Below are positions 596 to 56,554 of a stretch of DNA of 64,000 nt, one piece after another. The DNA is from Desulfovibrio sp. Lineage in GTDB: Bacteria > Desulfobacterota > Desulfovibrionia > Desulfovibrionales > Desulfovibrionaceae. The position numbers and the translations under genes were made by a program. Below the pieces are notes generated by a model. It made no database searches and was not told where the DNA came from. It was given only the letters and a program-made list of their open reading frames with translations. The stretch spans positions 30,765 to 94,764 of the forward strand of contig JAISRC010000162.1 in assembly GCA_031273845.1 (NCBI GenBank), read 5' to 3'. Every line of letters starts with the position of its first letter. Position 1 is the first letter of the stretch.

Positions 596-611
596 AGGCA
601 CGGGCTTTGCT
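596..611 (+). promoter_or_regulatory. sigma54 (-24/-12) promoter
   Basis: AGGCACGGGCTTTGCT has GG at 597-598 and GC at 609-610 (GG-N10-GC), matching TGGCACG-N4-TTGC. An AT-rich tract lies upstream. Confidence 0.75.
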
Positions 612-692
612 TTACGTTGCCCGACGCCGCCCGGGATGTCGGCCGAAACAGGCCGGCTCAAGATGAAAAGTGCGGCGGAGCAGGAGATGACT

Positions 693-2216
693 ATGCTTAA
701 CGCCAGACCTTCCCTTATCTTCAACGCCTCAACAACCGCCGAACACGGCGTTGCGGGAAAGAAAGCCCCGCGCCCGGAGCGTGCCGGAGAATCTTTTGCA
801 TCGTATTTCAAGGCGGAGCGACCGGGGGCGGCTTCTCAAAGCGGACAGACGATTCCGGACGCCGTTGCCTCGGCTTACAAAGCCGCGCAGGCCGCTGCTT
901 CGGAAAAGGCTCGACCCGTGCCTGAAGCGCGCCCCCGTCCGGAAGGACTCCTGGTAAAAAGCGCGCCGGAAATCGACAAATCGGCCATGTACGCCGCGCA
1001 TATACCCGAGGGCGGCCGGCAGGCCGCCGCCGGACGTCCGGCAGCGAAGACCTATGCAGTGACGGACCCGTCTCCCGTTTCGGCGCGGCAGACATCCGCC
1101 GTCGCGCCCCGCATATCCGGCCGTCCCGTCACCGGGAGGAACGGATTCGGCATACTCGACACGCGCAGACGCGCAACGGCTGACGACATATCCGGCTCCG
1201 CCGCGTCTATTCGGCGTCAAAACGCCGTCATGTTGTCTTCCCATGCCCCTGTCGCGGGTCAGGACGCTTATGCGCGCTTCGGTATGCGTCATAGCGACGA
1301 CATAAGCGGGCGCAGTTTTCTCAGCACGGGCTTTGCCTCCAAAAATGCGGAAACCGCGTTGAAAAAATTGGGATACGACATGCGGAGCGCGGAAAAGGTC
1401 GAAACGCGCGCGACCTTGCTTGAGCATGCGCGAACCCGAAGCGCGGGCGTTGCCGGACCTTATGCCGAGGCGGAAGCCGCCCTTGCGGCCGAAAGAGGAA
1501 GAAAGAGCATGGCCGCGCTCGGTCGGGAAGCGGGCAAATCCGTGCTCCCGCCGCTTGTTGCGGCGTCCGGAACCGATATCGGCGGGCTTGCGGCAAAATT
1601 TGAATCCGGTGAAGAGGGTATAGCCGCCATAGGTTATGACGGGAAGGGCGGCACATCGTACGGGAAGTTCCAGATAGCTTCCCGCGCCGGGACCATGCGT
1701 GCCTTTATCGAGTATTTGCGGGAAAAGGCTCCGGACCTTGCCGGTCGTCTGGCCGCTTGCGGCCCGGCGAACACCGGGAGCCGTTCCGGCCGCATGCCTG
1801 CGGAATGGCGCAGGATAGCCGCGGAACAGCCGGAGCGTTTTGAGCAGTTGCAGGGCGATTTTATCCGCACAAGCCATTTTGAGCCTGCCGTCGCGGCCAT
1901 AGCCGAGGTAACAGGCGTATCCTTTGAAAATCTGTCGCCGGTTCTGCGCGAGGTGCTGTTCAGCACGGCCGTCCAGCACGGCCCGGCCGGGGCCACCCGT
2001 ATTGTCGGCAGGGCCATGGCGGCGGTGAACGCCGACAAGCTGCAGGCGGGCGGGGTGAACGGGTCGGCCGAGGCCCAGGTTGAAGGCCGCAGGTTTATAA
2101 CCCATATCTACAATCTGAGGGCCGGCCGCTTCGGATCTTCCTCGGCGGGCGTTCAGGAAGCGGTCCGCAACCGGCTGAAGCTGGAAATGCGCGAGGCCTT
2201 GGGCATGCTTGTCTGA
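693..2216 (+). CDS. Protein with low-complexity N-terminus and C-terminal VgrG3-like lysozyme-fold (putative peptidoglycan hydrolase) domain
   Basis: The C-terminal ~200 aa contain AKFESG...IGYDGKGGTSYGKFQI...FSTAVQHG, resembling T6SS_VgrG3-like_C. Start placed at ATG 693 (GGAG 683-686); the ORF track starts at 636. Confidence 0.7.
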   Translation: MLNARPSLIFNASTTAEHGVAGKKAPRPERAGESFASYFKAERPGAASQSGQTIPDAVASAYKAAQAAASEKARPVPEARPRPEGLLVKSAPEIDKSAMYAAHIPEGGRQAAAGRPAAKTYAVTDPSPVSARQTSAVAPRISGRPVTGRNGFGILDTRRRATADDISGSAASIRRQNAVMLSSHAPVAGQDAYARFGMRHSDDISGRSFLSTGFASKNAETALKKLGYDMRSAEKVETRATLLEHARTRSAGVAGPYAEAEAALAAERGRKSMAALGREAGKSVLPPLVAASGTDIGGLAAKFESGEEGIAAIGYDGKGGTSYGKFQIASRAGTMRAFIEYLREKAPDLAGRLAACGPANTGSRSGRMPAEWRRIAAEQPERFEQLQGDFIRTSHFEPAVAAIAEVTGVSFENLSPVLREVLFSTAVQHGPAGATRIVGRAMAAVNADKLQAGGVNGSAEAQVEGRRFITHIYNLRAGRFGSSSAGVQEAVRNRLKLEMREALGMLV

Positions 2217-2521: not shown

Positions 2522-3097
2522 ATGAAAAGCCTCAAAGGAACACGCACAGAGAAAAACATCTTGGCCGCTTTTGCCGGAGAATCCCAGGCGCGCAACCGCT
2601 ACACCTTTTTCGCAAGCGCGGCGAAAAAAGAGGGTTTTGTACAGATTTCCGATATCATTACTGAAACTGCCGAACAGGAAAAAGAGCACGCCAAACGTCT
2701 CTTCAAGTTTCTGGAAGGCGGCGATGTGGAAGTTTCGGCTGCGTTCCCGGCCGGAGTCATCGCCGACACAAGAAGCAATCTGATCGCCTCGGCCGCCGGA
2801 GAACGCCACGAATATACGGAAATGTATCCGCAATTTGCCTCCATCGCGGCGGATGAAGGCTTTGCCGAAATAGCATCCTGCATGCGCGCCATAGCCGTAG
2901 CCGAGGCATTCCACGAACGCCGCTTTCTGGATTTTGCCCGCAACATCAAGGACGGCAGCGTATTTTCCCGGCCCGAGCCGGTCAAATGGCGTTGCCGCAA
3001 CTGTGGTTATGTGCATGAAGGCGCGGGCGCGCCGGATAAATGCCCGGCCTGCGCCCATCCCCAAGCTTATTTCGAATTGCTCGGCATCAACTGGTGA
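2522..3097 (+). CDS. rbr: Rubrerythrin
   Basis: ESQARNRY, EQEKEH, GERHEY and EAFH diiron ligands plus a C-terminal rubredoxin knuckle (WRCRNCGY...CPACAHP). Confidence 0.96.
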   Translation: MKSLKGTRTEKNILAAFAGESQARNRYTFFASAAKKEGFVQISDIITETAEQEKEHAKRLFKFLEGGDVEVSAAFPAGVIADTRSNLIASAAGERHEYTEMYPQFASIAADEGFAEIASCMRAIAVAEAFHERRFLDFARNIKDGSVFSRPEPVKWRCRNCGYVHEGAGAPDKCPACAHPQAYFELLGINW

Positions 3098-4233
3098 ACG
3101 ATGCCCGGAACCTGATCCGGGTACTGCATGTTGTCGCCTCGCTCGGCCTCGGCGGCACGGCGAAGGCTATGCAGCTTTTTGCTCAGCATACGGACCGCCG
3201 GCGTTTTATGCCGGCGGTCTGGAGTTCCGCGCAAGGGCCGCGCGAAAATCTGTTGCGGGAAAGCGGCATCCCGCTGTTCATCGGCGGGGACCTCGGCGCC
3301 TGCGCCGCACAGTTCAAGCCGCACATAGTGCATGTGCATCGGGCCGGCTGGCCTGAGCCCGAACTTCTACGCCCCCTGCGCGCAGCCTTCAGACCCGACC
3401 CTCTGTGTCCGGACCGCCGCCTGCCGCGCATTATCGAAACCAACGTCTTCGGACGCCATGATCCCTCTCCCTCCGGACGCCTCATTGACGTTACCTTGCT
3501 GGTTTCGGAATTCTGCGCCGAACGGCTGCGCGTTGCCGAAGGTCGCGTCATTGAAGCCCCGCGCCACCGGGTGCTGTATAACCCCGTGGACGTCGAAACC
3601 TATGCGGCCCTGACCCCCGATCCGGCGGAGCGCGACCGGTCCGGACCGGTTTTCGGGCGCGTCTCCCGCCCCGACCCCGGCAAATGGTCCATGCTGACCC
3701 TGGAAGCCCTGCCCTTGGTGCGCCGGCGCGTTCCCGAGTTTACCTTCCTGGTGATCGGGGGTATCGCGGAAGCCGAAGCCTTCGTCCGGGCCGAAGGGCT
3801 TGAGAAACATGTGCTCTTTTTGCCGCCTGCGCTTACGGACGAGGACCTGGCCGGTTTTTTCAACCGCTTGAGTTTTTTCGCGCACGCCAACAATACGGGC
3901 GAAAGTTTCGGCATGGTCATAGCCGAGGCCATGGCCGCCGGACTGCCGGTCGTTACGCACCCGTGCCGGGACTGGCGCGACAATGCACAAGCCGAACTGG
4001 TGAAGGACGGGGTTACGGGCTTTGTGGCCGACGGCCCTCAAGCTTACGCCGAGGCCGTTGTCCGTCTCCTGACGGACGCTTCCCTGTGCCGGGCCATGGG
4101 CACGGCGGCGCGCGCCGAAGCGCGGGCGCGTTTCGAGGTGCGTACCCTCGTGCGCCGGCTTGAGGCGATCTACGATGAAGCCTTGTCCGGGTCGGCAATC
4201 GCTTGTGGAATTCCTGCGGAAAAAATGCCATAA
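3094..4233 (+). CDS. Glycosyltransferase family 4 (GT-B)
   Basis: RVLHVVASLGLGG at the N-terminus, HIVHVH, and the ESFGMVIAEAMAAGLPVV GT4 motif. A GTG start overlaps the rbr stop. Confidence 0.88.
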   Translation: MNDARNLIRVLHVVASLGLGGTAKAMQLFAQHTDRRRFMPAVWSSAQGPRENLLRESGIPLFIGGDLGACAAQFKPHIVHVHRAGWPEPELLRPLRAAFRPDPLCPDRRLPRIIETNVFGRHDPSPSGRLIDVTLLVSEFCAERLRVAEGRVIEAPRHRVLYNPVDVETYAALTPDPAERDRSGPVFGRVSRPDPGKWSMLTLEALPLVRRRVPEFTFLVIGGIAEAEAFVRAEGLEKHVLFLPPALTDEDLAGFFNRLSFFAHANNTGESFGMVIAEAMAAGLPVVTHPCRDWRDNAQAELVKDGVTGFVADGPQAYAEAVVRLLTDASLCRAMGTAARAEARARFEVRTLVRRLEAIYDEALSGSAIACGIPAEKMP

Positions 4234-4314
4234 TACACCCGCAGGGGGGATGCGCGCTCTGCCCTGCGCGTCGATCCGCCTTCGCCGCGGCGGTAAAATG
4301 TATCGGAGGTAGCT

Positions 4315-5289: not shown

Positions 5290-6396
5290 ATGGACGTGCA
5301 GGATACACCTGCGGAAGGACAGGAAGCGAAACGGGACGAAAGCGTCCCTCTGCACAGGCGTGCGGGATTCTGGTTCGCTTCGGGCGTCCTCCTCGGCGTC
5401 CTGGCCGTTCTTCTTTTGCTGCGCGGATTTTTTCCCGCCTTGCAGAAAGCGGATACCCCGGAGCCTCCCCTTGCCTCCGCACCCGCCGCGCCCGTGGACG
5501 CGAATGGCCGGGCCGCGCGCCTGGATCGCCTGCGCGCCGGCAACAAAGGTCTTGAGGATGAAGTGCAGAGACTGAAAGCCCTGTTGCGCGAAGACCCCTG
5601 CGCCTTGCCCGATCTTTTGGGGAAAATTGTGCCGGAGGGGTCGGACGCAGCGCCGCCGGGTTCTGACGCAACCCCAGCAGGGGACGGCAAAGATGCGCCC
5701 GCGCAGCCCGCTGCTCCGCCGGCCGGCCCCGCGCCCCCGGCGGCCATGCCTGTCGGGACAGCCGCTCTTTTGGCCGAGGCCACGGTGTTTGTCGTGTCCT
5801 CATACGAAGGGTCAACGGGCATGGGCTCGGGATTTTTCGTCGCTCCCGGTATAGTCGCCACCAACAGGCATGTGGCCCGGTCCCCGCAGGCGAGCGTCAT
5901 CGTCGGCAACAAGGCGTTGGGGGGAATGTGCCGGGCTTCTGTCGCAGCTTTCAGCGGCGACGGGAATCGTGACTTCGCCCTGCTGAAAATTGAGGGCGGA
6001 CAGGCGGCCGCAATACCGTTCCTGCGTATAGCGCGCGGCGCGGAACGCACCGAGCGGGTGAGTGCCTGGGGCTTCCCCGGTTATATCGCGGCCATTGATC
6101 CCAAGCTTTCAGCCATGGCCGAAGGCGACATCAAATCGGTTCCGGACGTGGTGTACTCCGAAGGGGTGGTCAGCGTGGTGCTGGATAGAACCCCGCCCGT
6201 GATTCTGCACACGGCCGCACTGTCTCAGGGCAACAGCGGAGGCCCCTTGGTAAACGCCGCCGGCGTGGTCGTGGGCATCAACACCTTTATACGACAGGCC
6301 GATCAATCCTACAGCCAGACCAATATCGCGCTGCCGGGCTCGGAACTGGCAGCTTTTATGCGCGCCAACGGGTTCAAAGCAACCGAAGCGGAATAA
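5290..6396 (+). CDS. Membrane-anchored trypsin-like serine protease
   Basis: N-terminal TM helix and coiled coil. Catalytic triad motifs VATNRHV (His), DFALL (Asp) and GNSGGP (Ser). Confidence 0.88.
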   Translation: MDVQDTPAEGQEAKRDESVPLHRRAGFWFASGVLLGVLAVLLLLRGFFPALQKADTPEPPLASAPAAPVDANGRAARLDRLRAGNKGLEDEVQRLKALLREDPCALPDLLGKIVPEGSDAAPPGSDATPAGDGKDAPAQPAAPPAGPAPPAAMPVGTAALLAEATVFVVSSYEGSTGMGSGFFVAPGIVATNRHVARSPQASVIVGNKALGGMCRASVAAFSGDGNRDFALLKIEGGQAAAIPFLRIARGAERTERVSAWGFPGYIAAIDPKLSAMAEGDIKSVPDVVYSEGVVSVVLDRTPPVILHTAALSQGNSGGPLVNAAGVVVGINTFIRQADQSYSQTNIALPGSELAAFMRANGFKATEAE

Positions 6397-6401
6397 CTCC
6401 A

Positions 6402-7835
6402 ATGCCGGGTCAACAAAGCATGTCCTCGACCCTTATAGCCACAACCAGGCGCGGTGCCTACAATGCGTTGCGCTTTCAAGGCATTCTGGTGACCGAGAGC
6501 TACGTCCAGCTGGCCTCCCTGTTGGAAAAGCAGCTTTCTCCGCGTCATGCCCGCTTTTTGGCCGAACCGGCGCACGACGCATCGGGGAGCAGCACGGACT
6601 GGTACGCCCGGACAGATGAAAAAATAAGGCTGATCGCGGAACTGCCGGAAGAAGAAAAAAGCGAGGCGCTGCGGGCCGTAGCCGCCGTGGCTTCGGATAT
6701 CAGGGATCTGGCGGAAAAGCTGAAGGCGGCTCCGGATGCATCCTCCGTGATCCGGGGCAATATCCTGTCCCTGGCCTTGCATTATCCGGGAGAAAAAAAA
6801 CTCTACATCGCAGGCGACCAGCCCTTGCTGATCTGCTGGGGTTTTGATCCCGGTTCCCCGGACATACAGCCGGAAGACCTCGTGCGTCTGGGCGTCACGC
6901 CGCCCGCGCGCAAGGCATCGGCGGCCGCAGCGGTTCCGGCGGGCGAAAGTGCGGCGTCCGATGCCCCCCGGACCGTGAAGGCCGTTGCGCCGTTCCCCAT
7001 TTGGAACGCTCTGCTCCGGTTGCTTGCGGGTCTGGTCCTGGTGCTTGCTCTGTATTTTTTGATCGCGCTGCTCACGGGGCCGTCCGGTTGCCTGCCGTCC
7101 GGAGCGCGGCCGGGCGGCTGCTCACCCTCGCCGCAGGTCGCCGATAAAAAGGCCGAGGTTCCGGAGCGGGACGCGGAACTGTTGCGCGGACTCAGTGCCG
7201 AGCAAGAGAAGGAAGAATCCCTGCGCCGCGAACTGGCGGACCTGCGTCGCCGTCTGGAGGCAAGGATATTGGAATGCCCCCGTACCCCGCCTCCTCTCCC
7301 GGAACCGGAAAAGAAAGAAGTCCCGCCCCCGGCCCTGCAAGACCTTATGCCTGTGACCCCGGATCCTGAGCCCGTCCCACCGGTGCCTGAACCCAAGCCC
7401 AAGCCTGCGCCTGAGCAGGCGCCGAAGCCGAAAGCGCCCAGACAGAAAAAAGGAGAGGACCTGAAAATACCGGAAGACGCGCGCAAGAACAACGACATGA
7501 GTTTTCTGGAAGGTTGCTGGAATTCCGATTCCGGTCTGGTGGATTCTTCCGGCGACCCGGTCATCGTGACTTATTGTTTTGACGGCAAAGGCAGCGGTAC
7601 CCGGGCCATAACCAGGAAACAGAAGGGCGACCGCTGCGCCGGTCCGGTGCGGGCGCGTTTCGACCAATCGGGTAAGCTGCTTATCGACGCCGACGGCGCG
7701 CCTTGCCCGCGCGGCAGCGCCTTTGTGCCGCATCGCGTCGAATGTCTGCCCGGAGCCGGCGGGGACGCAAGCTGCAACGGCAGGGAACAGGGCGGCTTCA
7801 AAAATCGCTGGAATGCAAAATTCCGCAAAAATTGA
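6402..7835 (+). CDS. srfA: SrfA-family protein
   Basis: N-terminal FLAEP...DWY...LLICWGF region, central TM, coiled coil, Pro-rich linker and C-terminal FLEGCW. It lies directly upstream of srfB/srfC-like genes. Confidence 0.72.
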   Translation: MPGQQSMSSTLIATTRRGAYNALRFQGILVTESYVQLASLLEKQLSPRHARFLAEPAHDASGSSTDWYARTDEKIRLIAELPEEEKSEALRAVAAVASDIRDLAEKLKAAPDASSVIRGNILSLALHYPGEKKLYIAGDQPLLICWGFDPGSPDIQPEDLVRLGVTPPARKASAAAAVPAGESAASDAPRTVKAVAPFPIWNALLRLLAGLVLVLALYFLIALLTGPSGCLPSGARPGGCSPSPQVADKKAEVPERDAELLRGLSAEQEKEESLRRELADLRRRLEARILECPRTPPPLPEPEKKEVPPPALQDLMPVTPDPEPVPPVPEPKPKPAPEQAPKPKAPRQKKGEDLKIPEDARKNNDMSFLEGCWNSDSGLVDSSGDPVIVTYCFDGKGSGTRAITRKQKGDRCAGPVRARFDQSGKLLIDADGAPCPRGSAFVPHRVECLPGAGGDASCNGREQGGFKNRWNAKFRKN

Positions 7836-7853
7836 AACGGGTCGGCAACGAAT

Positions 7854-8061
7854 TTAAGGAAGTACCGATTGATTATTTATCCTTTGGGCCTGACGCCCAA
7901 TCCCTGCCCGGGGGAAATAATTTCCCCCGGACCCCCTTGCTTCCGGACCGTCGGCGTACAATGTCAAGTTACCGGAAAAAGGGAGCACAGGGGCCTCAGG
8001 CCCACGTCGAGGGAGTCGGAAAGAGCGGACCTCCTCCGGAATTAAACCAGCGCTTCCTTAA
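7854..8061. mobile_element. Family-B MITE-like element (degenerate TIRs)
   Basis: Left end TTAAGGAAGTACCGATT, right end AACCAGCGCTTCCTTAA, internal hairpin gggggaaataatttccccc. The ends are related to the copies at 15201 and 55418. Confidence 0.6.
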
Positions 8062-8190
8062 AGCAATTTAATTTTGAAACGTCTCCTCCGGCGTTTAACG
8101 GCGAAAGCAAGTTTCGCCTACGCCTGCGGGGCGGACGGCGGCGCTTTGCGCTCGCGCCGCCGGAGCAATTTCATTTTCAAATTGCTCTAA
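8060..8190 (+). mobile_element. Family-A MITE-like repeat (full copy)
   Basis: gcaatttaattttgaaacg...tttaacggcgaaagcaagtttcgcctacgcctgcggggcgg...gagcaatttcattttcaaattgctcta, nearly identical to 35588-35716 and 56375-56506. Confidence 0.85.
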
Positions 8191-8226
8191 GCATTGTAAA
8201 ATAAAATTGCCTTCAGGGTGGAAACA

Positions 8227-18261: not shown

Positions 18262-19643
18262 ACGCCGTACTCCACACCCTGGACATGGCTTGGCGGGACT
18301 ATCGGCACGAAGCGTTGCTTTCGTCCTGCTCGGTTTTCGTTCTGGCGGCCGTGCTGGCTCCGCTCATGGTGCTTCTGGGCGTGCGCCACGGCGTTGTGCA
18401 GGCCATGACCGAACGTCTGCTGAACGATCCGCGTACCCTGGAAGTTACCCCATCGGGCAGCGGCAAATACGGTCCGCAGTGGTTCCGCGCGCTGTCATCC
18501 CTGCCGGAAACGGCCTTCGTCGTGCCCCAGACCCGTTCCATAGCGGCCACCGTCAATCTTTCCAACCCCGCTGACAAGTGGTCGTCCTCCAATCCCGCAT
18601 CTCTCATTGCCACAGCCGCCGGAGATCCTCTGCCCGCGCGTTGGGGACTGCCCGATGTCGTGCTTGCGGCGGGATACGGGGAACACGGAGGCGGCGGTCC
18701 TTCGGACGGAGGCGGAACACATACGGATGCGGGGGGCGGGAAAATTTCGGGTAAAGGCGCTGTTCCCGTTGCCGGGGTTATACTTTCCGAATCCGCGGCG
18801 CGCAAGGCGGGCCTCGGCGAAGACGCGGCCGGGGCATTGCTTGAGGGTCGGGTGGAGCGCGTTGTCGAAGGCCGGCGCGAGGACGCGGCGGTGACTTTGC
18901 GCGTTGAAGGCGTGCTCCCGGCCGAGGCCTTGGGCACGGACGCCGTGTTCGTGCCTTTGGCCTTGCTTGCGGCTGCCGAGGATTACCGGGACGGCAGGGA
19001 CGCGCCGTTTTTCGTCGCTACGGGCAAGGCGCGCTCCGGCACGGCGGAAAAGCAGGGGACGTTCGACATTGAAGCATACGTCCGCGCGACGCGCGAAGAA
19101 CGGGTCTATGCCTCTTTTCGCCTCTATGCGCGGACCCTGGATGATGTCTCCCCGCTTCGGCAGTATTTTCGGGACAGGGGGGTGGACGTATACGTCCGTG
19201 TGGCGGAAATTGAGGCGGTACGCGATCTGGATCGCGCCTTCAGCGTGGTTTTCGGCCTGATCACCGGGGCGGCCCTGTTCGGATTTACGGCTTCCACCGC
19301 CGGCAATGCCCTGGCAAACGTAAAACGCAAGCGGCGTTCGCTCGGCGTCATGCGCCTGCTCGGTTTTCCCGGCAGAGGCATTCTGCTTTTCCCGGTTGCC
19401 CAGGCCGCGCTGACGGCCGTGCTCGGCGCGGTTGCGGCCTATGTCCTGTACCTTTGCGTGGCCTTCAGCATAGACCTGTTTTTTGCGGGGCGCATTTCCG
19501 GCGCGGCGACCGTATGCGCCTTGCCGCCCGGGCAGGTTCTGGCCGTTTTCGGGGCGGTGTTGCTTGTTTCTGCGGCGGCTTCGCTGTCCGCCGCATACCG
19601 GGCCATAAGCATCGAGCCTTCGGAGGTCATCCGTGATGTGTAA
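18258..19643 (+). CDS. ABC transporter permease, FtsX/MacB type (TagS-like)
   Basis: N-terminal TM, large periplasmic loop, three C-terminal TMs, KRRSLGVMRLLG and SIEPSEVIR. ATGA overlap with the ATPase gene. Confidence 0.85.
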   Translation: MNAVLHTLDMAWRDYRHEALLSSCSVFVLAAVLAPLMVLLGVRHGVVQAMTERLLNDPRTLEVTPSGSGKYGPQWFRALSSLPETAFVVPQTRSIAATVNLSNPADKWSSSNPASLIATAAGDPLPARWGLPDVVLAAGYGEHGGGGPSDGGGTHTDAGGGKISGKGAVPVAGVILSESAARKAGLGEDAAGALLEGRVERVVEGRREDAAVTLRVEGVLPAEALGTDAVFVPLALLAAAEDYRDGRDAPFFVATGKARSGTAEKQGTFDIEAYVRATREERVYASFRLYARTLDDVSPLRQYFRDRGVDVYVRVAEIEAVRDLDRAFSVVFGLITGAALFGFTASTAGNALANVKRKRRSLGVMRLLGFPGRGILLFPVAQAALTAVLGAVAAYVLYLCVAFSIDLFFAGRISGAATVCALPPGQVLAVFGAVLLVSAAASLSAAYRAISIEPSEVIRDV

Positions 19644-21399
19644 GCCGGCGGCGCGCATTCTCCCGGTGTTTCTCGCGCTTTGCCTTGTCCTGCCTTTTTT
19701 CTGCGCCGAAGCGGGTGCCGCCCTCAGGGCCAGAAAGGATACGCCGGCTATGGAGGATCTGTTCAACCCCCACCCGGACGGGGACGATATCGTTCTGCCC
19801 ATGCCCTGCGGGGGCGGCATGGCGTTCAGGGCGGTCGGAGTCCGCGCCGACGGCTATCTGCGCGACATGCAGGGGCTGTTCGGCTGCGATGCCTGTGAAC
19901 GCCGGGAAAACGACTATTACGAGCGCCGGTACAGGGCCGCGATCAGCGCGCCCTTCACCGTCCGGGACGTGCCGGAGGCAATCGCGCGTACGTTGCCCCG
20001 CGCTCCCTCCGGCGAATATTTCTTTTATTTCATCGGCAAGTACGAGATCAGCAATTTCCAGTGGGATGCGGTCATGGAAGGCCGCTGCCCTTCGGCATCC
20101 GCGCCTCTCGCGCCGGAAGACGCTCTGCCCAGGACGGACATGTCGTGGGTGGACGCGGTGAAGTTCGCGGCCGAATATACTGCATGGCTGCTGCGGCATG
20201 CCCCTTCCTCCCTGCCCCGTTTTGCCGGGGACGCCAAAAATGTCGGCTACCTGCGTCTGCCCACCGAGGTGGAATGGGAATATGCCGCGCGCGGCGGGCA
20301 CGCCGTATCCCGTTCCGATATGGCGGAAAAGGATTTTTTCCCTCTGGAAAACGGCAAAACAGAGCAGGATTACGCCGTGTTCAGAGATGAAGGGGGCAAT
20401 GCCCCGGAAGCTCTGCAACCCATAGGTTCCAGGCTGCCCAACCCTTTGGGGCTTTATGACACGGCCGGTAACGCCGCGGAAATGGTCGCCGATTACTTCC
20501 ACTTTTCTCTCGGCGGACGCCTGCACGGGTCGGCGGGAGGCATCGTCAGGAAGGGGGGGAGTTTTCTTTCCTCATCCGCTGAAATACTGCCCGGCAGACG
20601 CGAGGAAGCGGCGCTGTTCATAGCGGACGGGGAGAATAAAACCAGGGACATGGGCGCCCGGCTGGTCTTGTCCGGCATCAATACCCCGGCGGGCGGCCGG
20701 CCGGCACTGCTGGCCGCGGAATGGGCGGCCATGGGTGAGGGCGGCTATGCGCGCCCGCAGCAGGGCATAGACCCCCTGGAAGCTCTGGACCGGGTTATCG
20801 CCGAGGCCGTCGATCCCCGCGACAGGGAGGGCCTGACGCGCCTGCGCGGCATCTTCAAGGATCACAATATCGCTCTGGAGGAAGAAAACGCGGCCAGGGC
20901 CGAGGAACTCATACGCAGCGCCCTGTTCATGCTGGAAACGGTGCGCAATTACGCGGTGCGCCACAAAACCATGCTCGGACTTCTGGAGGAAAGCCGCAAA
21001 AAGTACGCGGACTATGTCGCAACGGGCAAAAGTCCCGCCCTGATTGAAGAAGTCCGCAGAGATACGGCCGATTACGAAAATTTTTGCCGCGACCTGGTCG
21101 TATCTCTTGACGCGGCCCTGCTTTTCTACCGGGGCCGGGTGGAAGCCGCCCTGAAGTTTCCCGAAGATGTTTTCACCTCCAGACTGAAAGCCGTTCAGTC
21201 GGAGTTCAAGGGCGACGACCGCCTGAATGTGAATATGCGCGGGGAACACGCCTTGTATTCCAGGCATGTGGAAATGTTGCGCCGAGGCGGGCGCGCGCAG
21301 ATGAGCAGGGATTTTCTGCTTCGGGACATACTGCCGCAAAATCTGCAAAAAGGGCTGACGGATCAGAGACCCGCGGAGAAACAGGCCGCCGGGTCATGA
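19633..21399 (+). CDS. FGE-sulfatase (SUMF1) domain protein, TagR-like, with C-terminal helical extension
   Basis: Signal peptide, IVLPMPCGG, FIGKYEIS, RLPTEVEWEYAARGG, PNPLGLYDTAGNAAEM and DMGARL. Confidence 0.85.
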   Translation: MMCKPAARILPVFLALCLVLPFFCAEAGAALRARKDTPAMEDLFNPHPDGDDIVLPMPCGGGMAFRAVGVRADGYLRDMQGLFGCDACERRENDYYERRYRAAISAPFTVRDVPEAIARTLPRAPSGEYFFYFIGKYEISNFQWDAVMEGRCPSASAPLAPEDALPRTDMSWVDAVKFAAEYTAWLLRHAPSSLPRFAGDAKNVGYLRLPTEVEWEYAARGGHAVSRSDMAEKDFFPLENGKTEQDYAVFRDEGGNAPEALQPIGSRLPNPLGLYDTAGNAAEMVADYFHFSLGGRLHGSAGGIVRKGGSFLSSSAEILPGRREEAALFIADGENKTRDMGARLVLSGINTPAGGRPALLAAEWAAMGEGGYARPQQGIDPLEALDRVIAEAVDPRDREGLTRLRGIFKDHNIALEEENAARAEELIRSALFMLETVRNYAVRHKTMLGLLEESRKKYADYVATGKSPALIEEVRRDTADYENFCRDLVVSLDAALLFYRGRVEAALKFPEDVFTSRLKAVQSEFKGDDRLNVNMRGEHALYSRHVEMLRRGGRAQMSRDFLLRDILPQNLQKGLTDQRPAEKQAAGS

Positions 21400-22211
21400 C
21401 GGACGCTCCGCCCTTTGCCGAACTGTGGGCTGCGTTGCGCGAGCGCGGCATAGATGAGGAACGCGCTTTCTGGGACGACAGGGCTGAAGAATTCAACGCA
21501 TTCGTCCACAACAGGGCCGGGGAAGACTCCCCGGCGGATTTCCTGCAGGAGCGCGGGGCGCTGTTCCCCGGCGCGGAAGTGCTGGACATAGGCTGCGGCG
21601 CGGGGCGCCATGCCCTGGATTTTGCGGGTCGGGGGGCGCGCGTCACGGGGCTGGACATTTCCCCTCTGATGATCGGCCATGCCGGAGCCAATGCCCGCGA
21701 ATCGGGGCTGAATATACGTTTTATCACGATGCCCTGGGAGGATGCGGACATTGAGGCTCTCGGCCTTGAGCGCGCTTTCGACCTCGTGGTGTCGGTGCGG
21801 AGTCCGGCGATCAATTCTCGGGAAACATTGATGAAAATGTGCCGCGCTTCGCGCGCGTATTGTTTTTTGAGCGCGTTCATCCACAGGGACGACATGTTGC
21901 TCGCGCCCGTCGCGGAACGGGTTGCGCCCGGGCGGATGCTGCACAGGCATGTGGGCGGCGCGCTCTATGCGTTCAACATACTGTGTTCGTGCGGTATCTG
22001 TCCCGGTTTTTACCGCCGGGGCGCGACGTGGAGCAGAGAGATCGGGCGGGAGGAAGCGGTGGAGCTTTGGGCGGGGGCGCTCGGTCCCCATCTTGCGGAT
22101 GCCGGAATGCGGGTGGAGGATCTGCCGGCCCTGCTTCCGGCGGCCGACGGCAACGGCCGGCTGTGCCGTACAATCAGGGCAGAAACCGCCTGGATATTCT
22201 GGAAAATATGA
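21396..22211 (+). CDS. Class I SAM-dependent methyltransferase
   Basis: VLDIGCGAGRHALDFA...VTGLDISPLMI motif I. ATGA overlap with the upstream gene. Confidence 0.9.
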   Translation: MTDAPPFAELWAALRERGIDEERAFWDDRAEEFNAFVHNRAGEDSPADFLQERGALFPGAEVLDIGCGAGRHALDFAGRGARVTGLDISPLMIGHAGANARESGLNIRFITMPWEDADIEALGLERAFDLVVSVRSPAINSRETLMKMCRASRAYCFLSAFIHRDDMLLAPVAERVAPGRMLHRHVGGALYAFNILCSCGICPGFYRRGATWSREIGREEAVELWAGALGPHLADAGMRVEDLPALLPAADGNGRLCRTIRAETAWIFWKI

Positions 22212-22269: not shown

Positions 22270-23610
22270 TTGCTGGTATGTACGCTGAAAATCGTATCGC
22301 GGAGGAAAGTCGTGTATGGCGGATATTATTGTGTTGCCCGGCATCGCTGTTTCGGCCCTGTCTTTGTACTACTGTGCGTATTGAAAAGTAAACTTTTCAA
22401 TACAGGGTTGCCGGCCGCAAAAGACGCTTTTCGGCCGGCCCGCGCTGCTTCGCGGCCTAGCGGCCTGCCGGCCGATGTACAGATTTCCGTGCGGCAAGCT
22501 GCGTCTGCGCCGCTCCTTTGCCTTTTTGCGCTCCTGCTCCTGTCCGCATGCGGAGGCGGGGCGGCCGTGCGGGGTGAGAGCACGACCTCCGCGCCCCCGC
22601 ATGCGGGCAAGCCCGAACCCATACAGCCGGTGGTCGGAACCGGTTCCGCCCTGCCAGAAGCCGGCGGCGCGGCGGAAACGGCGGGCAAGGCGCAGGCGAC
22701 GCCCGTTGCGGGAAGCGCGAAAAAGGCCGTGAAAAGCGCCGCAGCAGGGAGCGCGTCCGCTGACTGGACCGTGTTGGTAAACAGACTGCGTAATGACCCG
22801 GCTGCCGCCGGACTGGACGGCATGTTTCAGGGGCTTCCCGCATACTCCCCGCAACCGATGGGGGAAAAGATCAGGGAATTGTTCACCAGAGCCTTTATGC
22901 GCAAGCGCAAACCGGATGACGGCAGGCCGCGTGAACCCCGGCCGCGCATCTACCGCAACGTGGTTACTGCCGAGAACCTGAGTAAATGCCGGGATTTTCT
23001 CAGCGCCCACGCCGCTGCTTTCGACGCCGTGGAAAAAAAATATCCGGTTCCGCGCGAGATACTGGTATCCCTGCTCTTCGTGGAAACACGCCTCGGCGTG
23101 TATACGGGTAAAGAAAACGCCTTCTGGAGTCTGGCCTGCATGGCAGCCGCCGATTCACCCGAACGCATGAAAGGCGGACTTTCCGGCATCCCGATAACGA
23201 GCCGGCACGATGCCTGGCTGCGGGCGCGGCTCAAGGACAAATCCGACTGGGCCTACAAGGAACTGCGCGCCCTGTTGCTCTTTTGCCGGGCCAACGGGAT
23301 CAACCCCCTTTCCGTTCCGGGTTCCGTATACGGCGCCATAGGCATCTGCCAGTTTATGCCGTCCAATCTGGACAAGTTCGCCGAGGACGGCGACGGGGAC
23401 GGGGTGATCAACCTTTTCTCCGAGGCCGATGCCGTTTTCAGCGCGGCCCGTTATCTGACCCGGCACGGCTGGCAGGCCGGACTCGGCGTCGAAGGACGGC
23501 GCGGCGTACTGAAGCGCTACAACAATCTGAATATTTACGCGGATACCATCCTGACCATGGCCGAATCCCTGCGCGGCGGCGTGCTCCTTTCCGCCCCGCC
23601 GGAGCGCTGA
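22270..23610 (+). CDS. Lytic murein transglycosylase, MltB/SLT_2 family lipoprotein
   Basis: Lipobox LLLSAC, catalytic LFVETRLG, GAIGICQFMPS and EF-hand-like DGDGDG. The true start is probably downstream of 22270 (about 22489). Confidence 0.88.
   Translation: MLVCTLKIVSRRKVVYGGYYCVARHRCFGPVFVLLCVLKSKLFNTGLPAAKDAFRPARAASRPSGLPADVQISVRQAASAPLLCLFALLLLSACGGGAAVRGESTTSAPPHAGKPEPIQPVVGTGSALPEAGGAAETAGKAQATPVAGSAKKAVKSAAAGSASADWTVLVNRLRNDPAAAGLDGMFQGLPAYSPQPMGEKIRELFTRAFMRKRKPDDGRPREPRPRIYRNVVTAENLSKCRDFLSAHAAAFDAVEKKYPVPREILVSLLFVETRLGVYTGKENAFWSLACMAAADSPERMKGGLSGIPITSRHDAWLRARLKDKSDWAYKELRALLLFCRANGINPLSVPGSVYGAIGICQFMPSNLDKFAEDGDGDGVINLFSEADAVFSAARYLTRHGWQAGLGVEGRRGVLKRYNNLNIYADTILTMAESLRGGVLLSAPPER
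22378..22403. promoter_or_regulatory. Perfect AT-rich inverted repeat (possible operator or terminator)
   Basis: GTATTGAAAAG-TAAA-CTTTTCAATAC: 11-bp arms and a 4-nt loop. Confidence 0.4.
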
Positions 23611-26740: not shown

Positions 26741-27745
26741 CTATTGAGGCGCGGTACCGGCCAATTCCAGCCTGTACTGCTCTATGCCGTCGGCTATGCC
26801 TTCGCATTGCCGGGAAAGGTATTTATCCGATTTCAGGCTCGCCGCATCGTCTTTATTGGTGATGTAGCCGAACTCCACAAGTACGGCAGGCATGCGCGCT
26901 CCGAGCAACACATAAAACGGCGCCGAACGCACCCCGTTGTCGAAAGCGGGCAGGCCGGCCTTTTTCAGGCTGTTCAGTATGCCCCGGTGCACGGTTTCGG
27001 CCAGACGGCGTGATTCCTTGACCTTGGAACTGAGCATGAGATCGGTGAGGATGAACTGGAGATCACTGATTTTGCCGGCCGATACCCCGTTTTCACGGGC
27101 GGCCACCGTGACCGCGTCGCCGGTCTTGGCTTCGCTCAGATAATAGATTTCCAGCCCGCGCACGGAGGGTTTGGGATTGGCGTTGACGTGCAGGGAGATG
27201 AACAGGTCGGCCTTTTTCGCATTGGCCGCGTTCGGGCGCTGTTGCAAGGTAAGATAACCGTTGCCGGAGCGGGTATAGAGCACGGTAAAGCCGCGCCGGC
27301 GCAAAATCGCGCCCAGACGCTTGGCCATGTCCAGGGTAAAATTTTTTTCCACGATGCCTGCCCCCTCGGCGCCGGGGTCTTTGCCCCCGTGCCCGGCATC
27401 CAGCATGATGGTCTTGACCTCCAGACCGAGCTGCGCCAGCAGAGCGGAATTTTTTTCGGCCGGAGTCGGCTGTCGGGCTTGGGCCGCGCTCTTCTTTTTT
27501 GTCGCCGCCGCCTGCGGCGTCTTGCCTGCCGCTGAGCCGGCTTTGCCTGCCGCCGAGCCGGCTTTGCCTGTCGTGGAGCCGGCTTTGCCTGTCGCGGGCT
27601 GCCCGGCAGCGGACGCGGCCGGACTTTCGCCCGCGCAAAGCGCGAACACTGCCGGCAACAGCAGGCAAAAGGCAAATATTCTCAGGAAGGGGGGGAAGAA
27701 CCGCTTTGTACGGGACGGCGCGGGCTTTTTGCCGCGCCGTCCCAT
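26741..27745 (-). CDS. amiC: N-acetylmuramoyl-L-alanine amidase (Amidase_3)
   Basis: IMLDAGHGGKDPGA, EK, LFISLHVNA, RGLEIYY and MPAVLVEFGYITN. Start set at ATG 27745, just after the bamA stop. Confidence 0.88.
   Translation of the reverse strand: MGRRGKKPAPSRTKRFFPPFLRIFAFCLLLPAVFALCAGESPAASAAGQPATGKAGSTTGKAGSAAGKAGSAAGKTPQAAATKKKSAAQARQPTPAEKNSALLAQLGLEVKTIMLDAGHGGKDPGAEGAGIVEKNFTLDMAKRLGAILRRRGFTVLYTRSGNGYLTLQQRPNAANAKKADLFISLHVNANPKPSVRGLEIYYLSEAKTGDAVTVAARENGVSAGKISDLQFILTDLMLSSKVKESRRLAETVHRGILNSLKKAGLPAFDNGVRSAPFYVLLGARMPAVLVEFGYITNKDDAASLKSDKYLSRQCEGIADGIEQYRLELAGTAPQ
27534..27597 (-). repeat. 21-bp tandem repeat in the amidase linker (TGKAGST/AGKAGSA)
   Basis: gagccggctttgcctg recurs three times with a 21-bp period. 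Confidence 0.8.
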
Positions 27746-27755
27746 ACGGACAGGA

Positions 27756-30509
27756 CTAGAAAGTCTGGCCCATGGAAAACTCGAAACGCCCACTGCTTTT
27801 GTTTCCGTTACGGTCTTCGTCGAAGGGGATACCGTAGGAGAAACGCAGATCACCCATGGGCGAACGCCAGCGCACTTCAAGGCCGGCGGATTTCAGCATT
27901 TCCCGGTTCCAGGAGTAGGAGCGGTCCGCATCCACGTTGAAGCCCATGTCGTAGAAAGGCACCAGATAAAGCCCTGCTTCGTTGCTCAGGGTGTATATGT
28001 ACTCAAGGTTCATGAAAGCCATGCGCGTGCCGCCGATGCGGTCGCCCGTCTCCGGGTCGCGGGGCACTATGTCTTCGCTGTCATAGCCGCGCACGGTATT
28101 CATGCCGCCCATCCAGAAGCGCTCGAAGACAGGTACCTCGTCCTTGCCGTTCTTCAGTATGGCCATGCCCTTGATGCGTCCGTGCAACACATGCTCCGGC
28201 CAAAGCTGGTAATAGCTCTGGTGTTCGGCGGAAAGGGTGATGAAGGAGTCGTCTCCGCCCAGCAGACCGCCGCCGTATTCCACGCCCAGAATGTCTATGT
28301 TGCCGGAGGTGGGGTTTTCCCGGTCGGTGGAGTCGCGCACGAGCCGGGCCAGTCCCACGCTGGTGTAACGGACGCCGTCGGCATAATCCCGGATCAGTCT
28401 GGCCGCGTACTGGTTGGTGTCGTATATTTCATACTCGTCCAGGCGGTAGCCCCAGCCGAAGGACGTATATTCGCCCAGAGGATAGGCAAAACGCACGACT
28501 GCGCCTGTGGTTCTCTTGGTGAAATCTATGTAGTCGTCGCGCCAGTGGTAGACGTCCATGCCCACGCTCAGGTCCGTGTCGTTCCAGCGCGGGTTGCCCA
28601 TGCTCAGGGTGTATGCGTTGCGCCGCGCGGAAAAAGCCGCCTGGAGCGAAACGTTGTATCCCTTGCCCCAGAGATTGCGTTCCATGATGGTGGCGGCCAC
28701 GCCGACCCTTGAAAAGGTCGAGTAGCCTACTCCGGCCATGAGCGCCCCGGTCGGTTTTTCCTTGACCTTGACCTTGAGGTCCACTTCGTCCGCATTTTCC
28801 GTGGGCGAAAGTTCGACCTCGGCCACTTCAAAGTAGCCGAGCTTGTTCAGCCGCTCCGTGCTGCGGCGGAGTTTGTCGCCCTGGAACTGTTCGCCGTCCG
28901 TGAGACGCATTTCGCGCAGAATCACGTTGTCGCGGGTTTTGATGTTGCCTTCCACCGTCACGCGGCGCACATGATACCTGTTTTTCCTGGCTATGGAGAA
29001 AACGATGTCCACGGTGTCGGAGCCGTCGGCGCGCTTGCGCGGGAGGGCTTCTACGTCGGCAAAGGCGTAACCGTAATCCGCATAAAATTCCGTAAGCTTT
29101 TTCACATCACTCTGCATCTGCGTCAGATTGAACCAGGCGCCGGACGAGGCCATCTCGTCCATGCCTGTTTCTTCTTTCAGACGTTCTTCCGTGTCTATGA
29201 GGTCACCGGCAAAGGTGATGTTGCCCAAGGTATAACGCGGGCCTTCATGGATGGGGAAGGTGACGACGATGCCGTCTTCGGTGTAGTCTATTTTGGGCGC
29301 GGCCACAGTCACGTCCATGAAGCCGCGATCCAGATAATAGGCGGTGATGGCCGAGGAATCGCGCTCGATGAGTTCTTCCTTGAGCACGCCTGTACCCGTT
29401 ATCCAGGAAATTATGCTGCGTTCGGAGAGCAGAAGCTGGTCCTGCACATCGCCCGCGTCGAGCTGCTCGCAGCCGTCCAGGCGGACCTCGCTGATGTAAA
29501 GTTTTTTTCCTTCGTTGATGCTCAGGTTCAGGGCGGCGGAATTGCTCCCCGGCCGCACGTCCACATGCTGGTCCACCGTCGCCAGATAATAGCCTTCCTT
29601 GCGGTAGGCTTCGAGGATTTTCTGGATGTCGTCGGCAAGCAGTTTTTCGTTGAGAATGGACCCGGCTTTGTTGCCCATGACGGCCAGAAGGTCGTCGTCG
29701 TCCAGTTCGGAGTTTCCGGTGAAGGTGACGCTTTCAAGCCTGGGTTTTTCCTTGACCGTGTAAACGGCCCAGAGTCCGTCCGGGCGGGGTTCGAGGGTGA
29801 CCTGGACATCGCTGAAATAGCCGAGGTCCCAAATCTGCTTCACTTCCTGGTCGATGGCCGCCGCATCGGGTTTGTCCCCCTTGCGCGTGCTGATGCGCAT
29901 GAGCACCACGTCGGGGTCCAGAACCAGCGTGCCGCGCACCTCAATGCCGGCTATGACCGCTCCGCCCGGATCGGGAGCGCCCGGACGCGGCAGTTCGGCG
30001 AGTATGGCGGAGGCCAACTGATCCGCGGCTGTGGGCATGCTTGCCGTGCCGCCGTCGAGTTCCACGAATACGGGCACGGGCGAACGGGCTGCTCCGGCAG
30101 GGGCCAGCCGGGCGTCGATGCTCATGCTTGAGCCGGAAATGTTCACCGAGCCGTAGACGGCATAGGCCGCGCCGGCCGAGGCCGCCAGAGAACGGACGGC
30201 GGCGGGGTCCAGAGAATCGATGCGGCGCGCCTTGATCAGCGCCAGCATTCTCTCGTGCGGGATAACGGCCGCGCCGGAGGCCGTCAGACGCCGGCCCATA
30301 AGCTGGGCGAAAGAACTGTCCGCCTCCTGCCGGCCGTCCTCCTGCCGCACATTGAAGGGCAACACAAGGATGCGCGGGGCGCCGGACCCGGCTGCCTTCG
30401 CCCGCGCGGCGGCGGCCTGCGCCTCTGTTATGAAAAGCAGGCAGACCAGTATCGCCGACAGGACAAAGCAGGTGGAAATTCCCGAACCTCGTTCAGCGCG
30501 ATTGCTCAT
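27756..30509 (-). CDS. bamA: Outer membrane protein assembly factor BamA with N-terminal extension
   Basis: POTRA repeats (IWDLGYFSDV, LNKLGYF), L6 loop VRGY motif and C-terminal FEFSMGQTF. Confidence 0.95.
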   Translation of the reverse strand: MSNRAERGSGISTCFVLSAILVCLLFITEAQAAAARAKAAGSGAPRILVLPFNVRQEDGRQEADSSFAQLMGRRLTASGAAVIPHERMLALIKARRIDSLDPAAVRSLAASAGAAYAVYGSVNISGSSMSIDARLAPAGAARSPVPVFVELDGGTASMPTAADQLASAILAELPRPGAPDPGGAVIAGIEVRGTLVLDPDVVLMRISTRKGDKPDAAAIDQEVKQIWDLGYFSDVQVTLEPRPDGLWAVYTVKEKPRLESVTFTGNSELDDDDLLAVMGNKAGSILNEKLLADDIQKILEAYRKEGYYLATVDQHVDVRPGSNSAALNLSINEGKKLYISEVRLDGCEQLDAGDVQDQLLLSERSIISWITGTGVLKEELIERDSSAITAYYLDRGFMDVTVAAPKIDYTEDGIVVTFPIHEGPRYTLGNITFAGDLIDTEERLKEETGMDEMASSGAWFNLTQMQSDVKKLTEFYADYGYAFADVEALPRKRADGSDTVDIVFSIARKNRYHVRRVTVEGNIKTRDNVILREMRLTDGEQFQGDKLRRSTERLNKLGYFEVAEVELSPTENADEVDLKVKVKEKPTGALMAGVGYSTFSRVGVAATIMERNLWGKGYNVSLQAAFSARRNAYTLSMGNPRWNDTDLSVGMDVYHWRDDYIDFTKRTTGAVVRFAYPLGEYTSFGWGYRLDEYEIYDTNQYAARLIRDYADGVRYTSVGLARLVRDSTDRENPTSGNIDILGVEYGGGLLGGDDSFITLSAEHQSYYQLWPEHVLHGRIKGMAILKNGKDEVPVFERFWMGGMNTVRGYDSEDIVPRDPETGDRIGGTRMAFMNLEYIYTLSNEAGLYLVPFYDMGFNVDADRSYSWNREMLKSAGLEVRWRSPMGDLRFSYGIPFDEDRNGNKSSGRFEFSMGQTF

Positions 30510-35925: not shown

Positions 35926-36250
35926 ATGCAGCCGGGGATACAGTGACCCTGTTCAGAGGAGCCCCCCCGCCTTTCTCACCTCAGTCTTGGCGGCCAAGCC
36001 TCTATGATTTTTTTTTCATTCGATTGATGCCCTTCCGCCTTCTGTCGTCCATAATCCCCTCGCCATCTTCCCTTCATACCCGATATCCTTTGCGCCGCAA
36101 TATCTGTAGCATTTTTTTGTTGCGCCCCAGCGTTTTCCCGCCGGCACGGCATGATTTTCCCCCGGCGCGCCGGGAGAGGTTCCGGCAATCATGAAAAGAA
36201 GTATGTAAAAGCGGCGGGATGTAAAATATTGCGCGCTCCGGCCGCTTTTT

Positions 36251-36266
36251 TGGCACGGGCTTTGAA
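36251..36266 (+). promoter_or_regulatory. Probable sigma54 promoter of fliK-flgD-flgE
   Basis: TGGCACGGGCTTTGAA is GG-N10-GA (a -12 variant), 26 nt before the fliK ATG. It shares 13 bp (GGCACGGGCTTTG) with the promoter at 596. Confidence 0.6.
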
Positions 36267-40877: not shown

Positions 40878-40985
40878 AACCGCATGTCAGGGGCGGGATT
40901 TCCTCCACCTCCCGTCGATGCGGGCCCGGCGTGCTTCCTCCACGCGCCGGGCCTGTGCAGTTCATCCGGGTTCCGCCGGGCCTTA

Positions 40986-42158: not shown

Positions 42159-42557
42159 AATTGATATATTTCCTTTCACTTGGAGAAAGCCCGATGGCCG
42201 CCTTCCATGATCAAGCCCTTTTTCACTGTCGGTCGGTGCCGGTCCATTGCCTCAACGGCTCTATCCGGCCCTGAGCGGTCAGAACATTCACAGCAATGCC
42301 GACCCGCTCCGAGAACTGCTTTTTATGCGCATTCCAGTCATAAGTTTGCCGGACTAACAGCATAACGGCGGGGCAACCATAGGAGTAATTTTTTTTGAGT
42401 ACGTCCGCTTTACACAGGAATTACTCAAAAAAGTTCCCGGCTGCAAGGGAATTGTATGCACAGGGCGCAGTCGGGGAACTTGCCGGCGAAGAGGAAGGGT
42501 ACTATACAGAAGCGGCAACGCCTTACCCGCAGAATCACCATATACCGGGGAAAATCC

Positions 42558-56506: not shown

Positions 56507-56554
56507 AGCAACTATTTCAAGCGTAACATGCTGTAATGATGACCGGGAGCCTTG

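Follow-up and report, generated by a model that had tools for sequence, protein, structure and literature searches.

What does a bacterium do with a VgrG3-like cell wall hydrolase that is not part of a VgrG? The question is raised by a gene near the start of a 64,000-nucleotide (nt) stretch of DNA from Desulfovibrio sp. (GenBank assembly GCA_031273845.1, contig JAISRC010000162.1, positions 30,765 to 94,764 of the forward strand; hereafter, the window). The gene lies at positions 693 to 2216 of the window and encodes a 507-amino-acid (aa) protein of the family to which DVU3387 of D. vulgaris Hildenborough belongs. An earlier reading of the sequence (the original prediction) had proposed a flagellar wall hydrolase and not an effector of a type VI secretion system (T6SS). 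Our analysis supports the predicted enzyme class, the sigma-54 promoter, and the separation from T6SSs. It also identifies a candidate signal for export by the type III secretion system (T3SS) of the flagellum, through which the enzyme could possibly reach the wall that the flagellar rod has to cross. The features of the gene given below, and those of fliK with which they are compared, are all on the + strand.

The coding sequence (CDS) was defined as follows. The gene had been listed as an open reading frame (ORF) starting at 636. We replaced this start with the ATG at 693, because that ATG is preceded by a ribosome-binding site (AGGAG, 682 to 686; 6-nt spacing), because the 507-aa product is 100% identical to a database protein (P0001), and because the N termini of the orthologs (MLNAGP or MVNGKP) line up with it in an alignment. 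The CDS is monocistronic, ends with TGA at 2214 to 2216, and follows a 5′ leader (612 to 692) that contains the ribosome-binding site. Neither a convincing sigma-70-like promoter within 200 nt of the gene start nor a clear terminator flanking the gene was seen. The window gave no matches when scanned with Rfam or for tRNAs, and none of the public sequencing runs searched for the window stretch contains it.

The catalytic domain occupies residues 297 to 507 (1581 to 2213) and is marked by two signatures, FESG...YD..GGTSYGKFQ and FSTAVQHG. The original prediction had likened this region to the wall-hydrolyzing C terminus of Vibrio VgrG3. A profile search agrees: residues 297 to 498 match Pfam family PF21277 (T6SS_VgrG3-like_C) at an E value of 7.7e-27 (94.9 bits versus a cutoff of 27), covering positions 2 to 182 of the 183-position profile. 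Pfam found nothing beyond PF21277 in the 507-aa protein, hence no VgrG gp27/gp5 spike, PAAR, or recognized T6SS delivery domain, and an NCBIfam scan matched no family; the protein is without a spike, as had been claimed. Neither a GH73 nor an SLT catalytic domain was found by Pfam, nor was a Rod_binding domain at an E value of ≤1. All homologs carry PF21277, and some carry PF01374 (Glyco_hydro_46) in addition.

A profile of 40 family members matches the structures of the Vibrio cholerae VgrG3 C-terminal domain (VgrG3C; 4noo and 4nso) with an E value of ∼1e-12, and the FESG (xES), GGxSYGxYQ, and STxVQxG blocks are aligned. Throughout the 40-sequence alignment, Glu304 (codon 1602 to 1604), Asp316 (codon 1638 to 1640), and the GGTSYG motif do not vary, and the two acidic residues align with the "ES" and "GngD" of 4noo, at the catalytic positions. 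We take these positions to be those of the VgrG3/GH46 catalytic acid-base pair (a Glu, then an Asp ∼12 to 15 residues later). In an AlphaFold model built on the family alignment, the predicted local distance difference test (pLDDT) values of the C-terminal domain are mostly 80 to 95, with a low-confidence hairpin at 310 to 321. Foldseek returned a sole significant match in the PDB, 4noo_A (probability, 1.0; template modeling [TM] score on the target, 0.58; 184 columns), with an identity of ∼18% in the structure alignment. As judged by sequence and model, the protein's enzyme class, that of a VgrG3C-like hydrolase of peptidoglycan glycan strands with a GH46-like lysozyme fold, is well supported; the glycan strand would be its expected substrate, as it is for the VgrG3 C-terminal domain.

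Upstream of the gene, at 596 to 611, is the sigma-54 (−24/−12) promoter AGGCACGGGCTTTGCT, with GG at 597 to 598, GC at 609 to 610, and a predicted transcription start near 621. It differs by 1 mismatch from TGGCACG-N4-TTGCW and is the top site of this kind in the window, confirming the promoter that the original prediction had placed there. A GG-N10-GC site (≤2 mismatches; no more than 450 nt from the 5′ region of the gene) was found at 63 of 79 orthologous loci, versus 0.035 expected, and the promoter is kept despite flanking genes that differ from lineage to lineage. That sigma-54 control of the gene is real and conserved is well supported by these sequences. The sigma-54 dependence of the family is already on record (DVU3387, in a 2015 supplement).

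Does this promoter by itself tie the gene to the flagellum? It had been argued to be of a flagellar type because its 13-bp core recurs upstream of fliK, flgD, and flgE. The 13-mer, GGCACGGGCTTTG, is indeed repeated exactly at 36252 to 36264, 27 nt ahead of the fliK ATG, and none of 100 shuffled controls gave ≥3 matches at ≤1 mismatch, but the fliK promoter (TGGCACGGGCTTTGAA, 36251 to 36266) is not a clean GG-N10-GC element: it ends in TTGA. The identity says little about coregulation because 9 of the 13 bases are sigma-54 consensus positions. We rejected it as evidence of coregulation, the two promoters carrying different enhancer motifs, and the argument built on it is weak, for the gene is without the FlrC/DVU1063 sites that fliK has.

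Two regulators are of concern here. DVU2894 is FlrA/FleQ-like, has the predicted motif yGTCA-N6-TGACr, and is coexpressed with flagellar genes; DVU1063 is FlrC-like, has the motif GGMAA-N3-TTKCC, and controls fliK, flgDE, flgBC-fliEFGHI, and flagellin (PMC4641369). An enhancer-like dyad, AATCAAAATTTTGACG (519 to 534; core, ATCA-N6-TGAC), begins 77 nt upstream of position 596. When scored with a position weight matrix (PWM) made from 22 predicted DVU2894 sites, it reaches 13.2 bits, the top value in the whole window. Dyads of ≥9 bits are present at 23 of 59 loci of the family (0.086 expected), and a relaxed pattern is present at 30 of 62 loci, versus a background of 4%; the dyad positions cluster between −66 and −91. 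A PWM of 85 DVU1063/FlrC sites detects two sites at fliK (GGCATGATTTTCC at 36148 to 36160 and TGCAATTTTTTCC at 36293 to 36305, the latter at +1) but only a background number across the family (4 of 59 loci). The arrangement at fliK, with the promoter at −43 and sites ∼100 nt upstream and at +1, is that of DVU1445 in D. vulgaris Hildenborough (promoter at −43 and DVU1063 sites at −108 and +1; PMC4641369, files 4 and 6). Because fliK has DVU1063 sites and the target has a DVU2894-type dyad, we assign the two promoters to different enhancer classes. From its sequence, the gene looks like a target of the top-tier FlrA/FleQ-like regulator, not of the rod/hook tier.

The window also encodes a sigma-54 activator of its own (56552 to 58054; response-regulator type), which we rejected as the regulator of the gene because its DNA-binding helix is unlike those of DVU1063 and DVU2894. 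Of the FlrC-type sites in the window, GGAAATTTTTGCC scores highest (18.7 bits); it is at 37401, inside fliK and ∼520 nt before flgD. A separate flgD promoter or site where D. vulgaris Hildenborough has one was not found in the window.

The N-terminal ∼290 aa are predicted to be disordered in the AlphaFold model. They had been described as low complexity with no signal peptide. A hydrophobic signal peptide is indeed absent (over the first 70 aa, the Kyte-Doolittle mean of 15 residues peaks at 0.5), and the protein has neither a Sec nor a Tat signal, but the region is not merely of low complexity, as it contains conserved short motifs. The extreme N terminus, MLNARPSLIF (693 to 722), with the small nonpolar residues L2, A4, L8, and I9, is a candidate N-terminal hydrophobic export signal; the family consensus in the 40-sequence alignment is MVNGKPxLTF, in which M1 is invariant and P6 nearly so. 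The second motif, of the form FxxxPhi, is F35-A-S-Y-F39 (795 to 809). Its alignment, its position, and its likeness to FliK and FlgD make it a candidate FlhB gate-recognition motif. As F-[AS]-x-x-[LMIVF], it is the sole universally conserved element of the family beyond the catalytic domain; among the 40 sequences, F35 never varies and A36 and L39 hardly do, and across 77 loci its median position is residue 36 (interquartile range, 34 to 40). Two flagellar proteins of the window have FxxxPhi at F35-NAV-L39 (FliK) and F34-LKL-L38 (FlgD).

The gate-recognition motif of Salmonella FlgD, 36-FLTLL-40, docks early subunits on FlhB, and in early flagellar substrates it must sit at least ∼19 to 24 residues from the N-terminal hydrophobic signal (PMC8983047). 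In the window protein, ∼25 residues separate MLNARPSLIF from FxxxPhi. Export by the flagellar T3SS had been offered as a guess, and the invariant FxxxPhi at residue ∼36 lends it unexpected support at the level of sequence. Since a hydrolase without a Sec signal needs some route to the periplasm, the flagellar T3SS would be the only route with a sequence signature. Two further conserved motifs were seen in alignment A1. One, PRISGRPVTGRNGFGILDTRRR (1107 to 1172), is in the disordered linker; its G148, R149, G153, D156, T157, and R158 are nearly invariant, and it is confined to the subfamily nearer the window protein. The other, SFLSTGFASKNAETALKKLGYD (1314 to 1379), coincides with AlphaFold helices at 209 to 212 and 218 to 225.

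We tentatively favor the explanation that the protein is a glycan hydrolase exported by the flagellar T3SS that complements a FlgJ without a glycosidase, although we would give this somewhat less than an even chance. We infer the identity of the activator, the export route, the site of action, and the link to FlgJ, and the events might run as follows. The gene would be transcribed alone from its sigma-54 promoter, activated from the dyad ∼77 nt upstream, most likely by a FlrA/FleQ-like top-tier flagellar regulator of the DVU2894 type and not by the FlrC type that drives fliK, flgD, and flgE. The small nonpolar extreme N terminus and the FxxxPhi at 35 to 39 would form a two-part early-substrate signal, with which the protein would dock at FlhB and be exported to the periplasm by way of the nascent basal body. 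Local cutting of glycan strands there would let the rod cross the wall, and the hydrolase would supply the glycosidase activity absent from delta-proteobacterial FlgJ. The passages on FlgJ in PMC8517470 and PMC6913195 (citing Nambu 2006) give the delta-proteobacterial protein as single domain, without a hydrolase.

The broader proposal is that a wall-piercing module that T6SS spikes and phage virion proteins also contain was recruited as an early flagellar-export substrate, is timed with the first tier, and is the missing rod-penetration glycosidase of the Desulfovibrionaceae; this we regard as possible rather than probable. In a variant of it, aflagellate lineages may have kept the pair of regulator and hydrolase beyond the loss of the flagellum, as a relic for secretion or wall remodeling.

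How would such an enzyme compare with those already known to open the wall for the rod? The protein could work like the GH73 domain of FlgJ, SltF, or BB0259, but it is outside their families. Salmonella FlgJ (a rod cap plus a GH73 glucosaminidase) has the job proposed here, that of an early wall glycosidase exported by the flagellar T3SS, and in both proteins a disordered or scaffolding N terminus precedes a C-terminal hydrolase; the architecture of the N-terminal signal is also comparable (PMC8983047). However, the window protein is GH46/VgrG3C-like instead of GH73, is without Rod_binding, and is encoded away from the flagellar operons. Rhodobacter sphaeroides SltF and Borrelia burgdorferi BB0259 (LTaseBb) follow the same logic of a separate wall-cleaving enzyme for a FlgJ that has no hydrolase (PMC8517470). 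Whereas both of these are SLT-type lytic transglycosylases, the window protein has a lysozyme/chitosanase fold and no signal peptide. SltF is exported by the Sec pathway.

The family was delimited with one genome per species. Relatives are present in at least 265 species, nearly all of them Desulfovibrionaceae, among which are D. legallii and D. vulgaris Hildenborough. D. legallii is reported to be flagellated (PMC13653922), and D. vulgaris Hildenborough has a full flagellar gene set (PMC4641369). The ortholog in the latter is DVU3387 (locus L085), identified by cluster AAS97856, by its neighbors zraP, zraS, and zraR, and by its exact promoter string; the context and that string ruled out DVU0410 and DVU1032. 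DVU3387 has the same domain, an FxxxPhi (F32-GQV-L36), and a sigma-54 promoter at −92, but at 337 aa it is shorter than the window protein, its linker being much reduced. Kazakov et al. (2015; PMC4641369, file 6) list the promoter at −92, assign no activator, and enter the product as "hypothetical protein, function unknown." Elsewhere DVU3387 is described as glycosyl-hydrolase-like, with abundance changes in biofilm mutants (PMC11784015).

Several observations weigh against a flagellar role, and they give strength to the chief alternative. In this alternative, the protein is a nonflagellar envelope enzyme, an autolysin or wall-remodeling glycosidase controlled by sigma-54 and an enhancer-binding protein under the same regulator. 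It would serve, e.g., in biofilm formation, cell separation, controlled lysis, or the insertion of another machine, and it would reach the wall by an unrecognized route, e.g., with a holin-like partner, to which the N-terminal motif would bind instead of to FlhB. We consider this a real possibility but a somewhat doubtful one.

The strongest of these observations concern a lineage that was deposited under the name D. piger. Neither flagellin nor flagellar genes are reported for D. piger proper (PMC13653922). D. piger ET209 and four related species keep the gene intact, with ratios of nonsynonymous to synonymous substitution rates (dN/dS) of 0.05 to 0.11, and in these five species-level genomes the N-terminal motif, the sigma-54 element, and the dyad are all conserved. 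The gene is also expressed: at locus L060, gut metatranscriptome contigs begin at 4273, 4294, and 4314, i.e., 16 to 57 nt downstream of the predicted start near 4257, depth is zero at 4080 to 4259, and the contigs cover the homolog as a monocistronic unit. Retention, expression, purifying selection, and a conserved N terminus in this lineage count in favor of an envelope enzyme. If the ET209 lineage is also aflagellate, the partner of FxxxPhi cannot be FlhB. ET209 is, however, the representative of a species of its own, and the sequencing runs that contain it are from chicken and bird gut. A search seeded with the ET209 protein gave only six clusters at ≥84% identity, and D. piger proper was not the name of any of them; the lack of a homolog from D. 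piger proper among the matches speaks against the envelope alternative. A search of the literature on D. piger flagellar remnants, and on DVU0517 or FlgJ of Desulfovibrio, found nothing usable.

Regulation, synteny, and existing data bear on the same choice. The flagellar link runs through a dyad matching a motif that is itself a computational prediction, that of DVU2894, and a PWM scan of 300 to 760 found no DVU1063-type site at the target. D. piger keeps a DVU2894 ortholog yet has no DVU1063 regulon entries (PMC4641369), so the DVU2894 regulon may not be purely flagellar. Flagellar synteny was never seen: tblastn searches with FliK, FlgD, and FlgE on 90 loci were empty. No Rod-binding-like motif was found near the homologs by regular expression, and flgJ is neither in the window nor in the homolog loci examined. 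DVU3387 protein has been detected in biofilms, and the largest decrease in abundance seen in biofilms of ΔDVU1545, a strain with an adhesin deleted, was that of DVU3387 (PMC11784015); its filing under "function unknown" by Kazakov et al. (PMC4641369) likewise suits an envelope enzyme. FxxxPhi is a short pattern. Finally, the FlgJ-like protein of Desulfovibrio, DVU0517, presumably carries an M23 peptidase domain; if it does, a wall-cutting activity may already exist. Against these points, an envelope enzyme would have no visible export route, the agreement of its N terminus with the FliK and FlgD gate-recognition motif, in position as well as in pattern, would be a coincidence, and its dyad matches the motif of a regulator that is coexpressed with flagellar genes.

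Five loci (L049, L050, L051, L060, and L074) share an invariant 45-nt leader block ∼40 to 100 nt upstream of the ATG (e.g., L060, 4350 to 4395). The block contains a perfect palindrome, TGTCGTCACGGCGATGACA, which might function as a second regulator site or form a hairpin in the RNA. Immediately after the stop codon of the homolog in L060, at 5580 to 5676, metatranscriptome depth reaches ∼1,000×, versus ∼5× over the gene. This segment is not a tRNA by ARAGORN and may correspond to a small RNA of high abundance or to a conserved element.

Could the flagellum instead release the protein as a weapon? An enzyme exported like FliK and FlgD and secreted as a bacteriolytic effector against neighbors, e.g., Gram-positive gut bacteria, would draw on the same export-signal evidence as the flagellar wall hydrolase that we favor. 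The homologous VgrG3 domain has a known antibacterial role, and a missing immunity gene would be tolerable if the producer's periplasm were bypassed. Until the rod is finished, however, early substrates leak into the periplasm, where the enzyme would threaten its own producer, and the retention of the gene in the D. piger-labeled lineage counts against an effector too. We consider it improbable.

Much less probable still is an orphan VgrG3-type effector that a T6SS from another part of the genome would deliver as cargo, although the PF21277 family is named for VgrG3, NCBI and UniRef label the homologs "VgrG-related protein," and V. cholerae T6SS genes are also RpoN dependent (PMC3439928). Neither the window nor any of 10 annotated homolog contexts contains a T6SS gene or a conserved adjacent immunity-like gene, the flanks differing in every lineage. 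The distribution of the family over at least 265 species of one bacterial family, with its own conserved sigma-54 promoter, and the lack of a gp27/gp5 spike, PAAR, or other delivery domain recognized by Pfam also speak against T6SS cargo. Compared with VgrG3, the window protein has no spike fusion, no TsiV3-like immunity gene, and no nearby T6SS; it adds a disordered N-terminal half with FxxxPhi and a sigma-54 promoter with a DVU2894-type dyad. A T6SS role is largely contradicted by the context, and the non-T6SS nature of the gene is well supported. Of the flagellar wall hydrolase first proposed, then, the enzyme class, the sigma-54 promoter, and the independence from T6SSs hold, and the promoter argument from the 13-mer does not.

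The same domain, with its FESG..GGTSYGKYQ blocks, is found on 46 IMG/VR viral contigs (33 to 56% G+C), near the C-terminal part of proteins that are mostly 1,000 to >2,300 aa long (a few are shorter) and that match two PHROGs, phrog_26249 and phrog_34863. These are virion-type proteins with closely similar catalytic blocks (FESG..AIGYD..GGTSYGKYQIAS), apparently in an envelope-crossing machine; in the window protein, the domain stands alone and has its own regulation. Its occurrence in both T6SS spike and phage proteins implies a module on which several envelope-crossing machines draw. It is nonetheless highly unlikely that the gene is a domesticated phage lysin that has no cellular role of its own and matches a promoter only incidentally, since the cellular family shares only 30 to 42% identity with the phage copies, in the C-terminal domain only, has its own conserved N terminus, promoter, and dyad, is under strong purifying selection, and has no phage genes around it in the window or the annotated homolog contexts.

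Why would a flagellar role for this family matter? How the rod crosses the wall when FlgJ is without a glycosidase is settled in just a few lineages, and in each of these the enzyme is an SLT-type transglycosylase. The family offers a specific candidate, DVU3387, in D. vulgaris Hildenborough, a model that is genetically tractable. If the proposal is true, a third catalytic fold has been recruited for rod penetration, a wall-piercing domain of the T6SS/phage type has been rerouted through the flagellar export gate by an N-terminal tag of ∼40 residues, and the enzyme is timed by the top-tier regulator instead of with the rod genes. The analysis also corrects annotation on hundreds of genomes, where "VgrG-related protein" and "chitosanase" misleadingly imply a T6SS or chitosan metabolism. 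Because flagellated gut Desulfovibrio are under study for TLR5 activation and disease association, an enzyme of flagellum assembly specific to this family would be of practical interest.

The window encodes other wall enzymes as well. An SLT_2 lytic transglycosylase (22270 to 23610) is an alternative candidate for opening the wall for the flagellum, and an Amidase_3 protein is encoded at 26741 to 27880, next to bamA and lolCDE-like genes. No sigma-54 site was found upstream of either gene.

Between the hydrolase gene and these enzymes is an srfABC-like cluster (5290 to 22211). SrfB is at 8218 to 11289 (PF07520; E value, 1e-251), SrfC/Virul_Fac is at 11256 to 13943 (E value, 1e-207), and a 477-aa ORF with no Pfam match (6402 to 7835) takes the SrfA position; a trypsin-like protease precedes the cluster. 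Downstream of the srfABC-like genes are two unknown ORFs, an ABC ATPase, an FtsX permease, an FGE-sulfatase-domain protein, and a methyltransferase. In Salmonella, srfABC is coregulated with the flagellar class 2 genes; to our knowledge, its function is not known in any organism.

The intergenic region upstream of a rubrerythrin gene (2522 to 3097) contains, at 2338 to 2448, a pair of 41-nt direct repeats that are 93% identical and have a spacing of 70 nt; the pair may be a duplicated operator or promoter. After flgE come an ORF with a low G+C content at third codon positions and no Pfam match (40884 to 41585) and then a gene for an 804-aa tetratricopeptide repeat (TPR) protein (42456 to 44870); in D. 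vulgaris Hildenborough, the TPR protein DVU0318 is in the flagellar DVU1063 regulon. A HicB-like antitoxin is encoded at 53300 to 53896.

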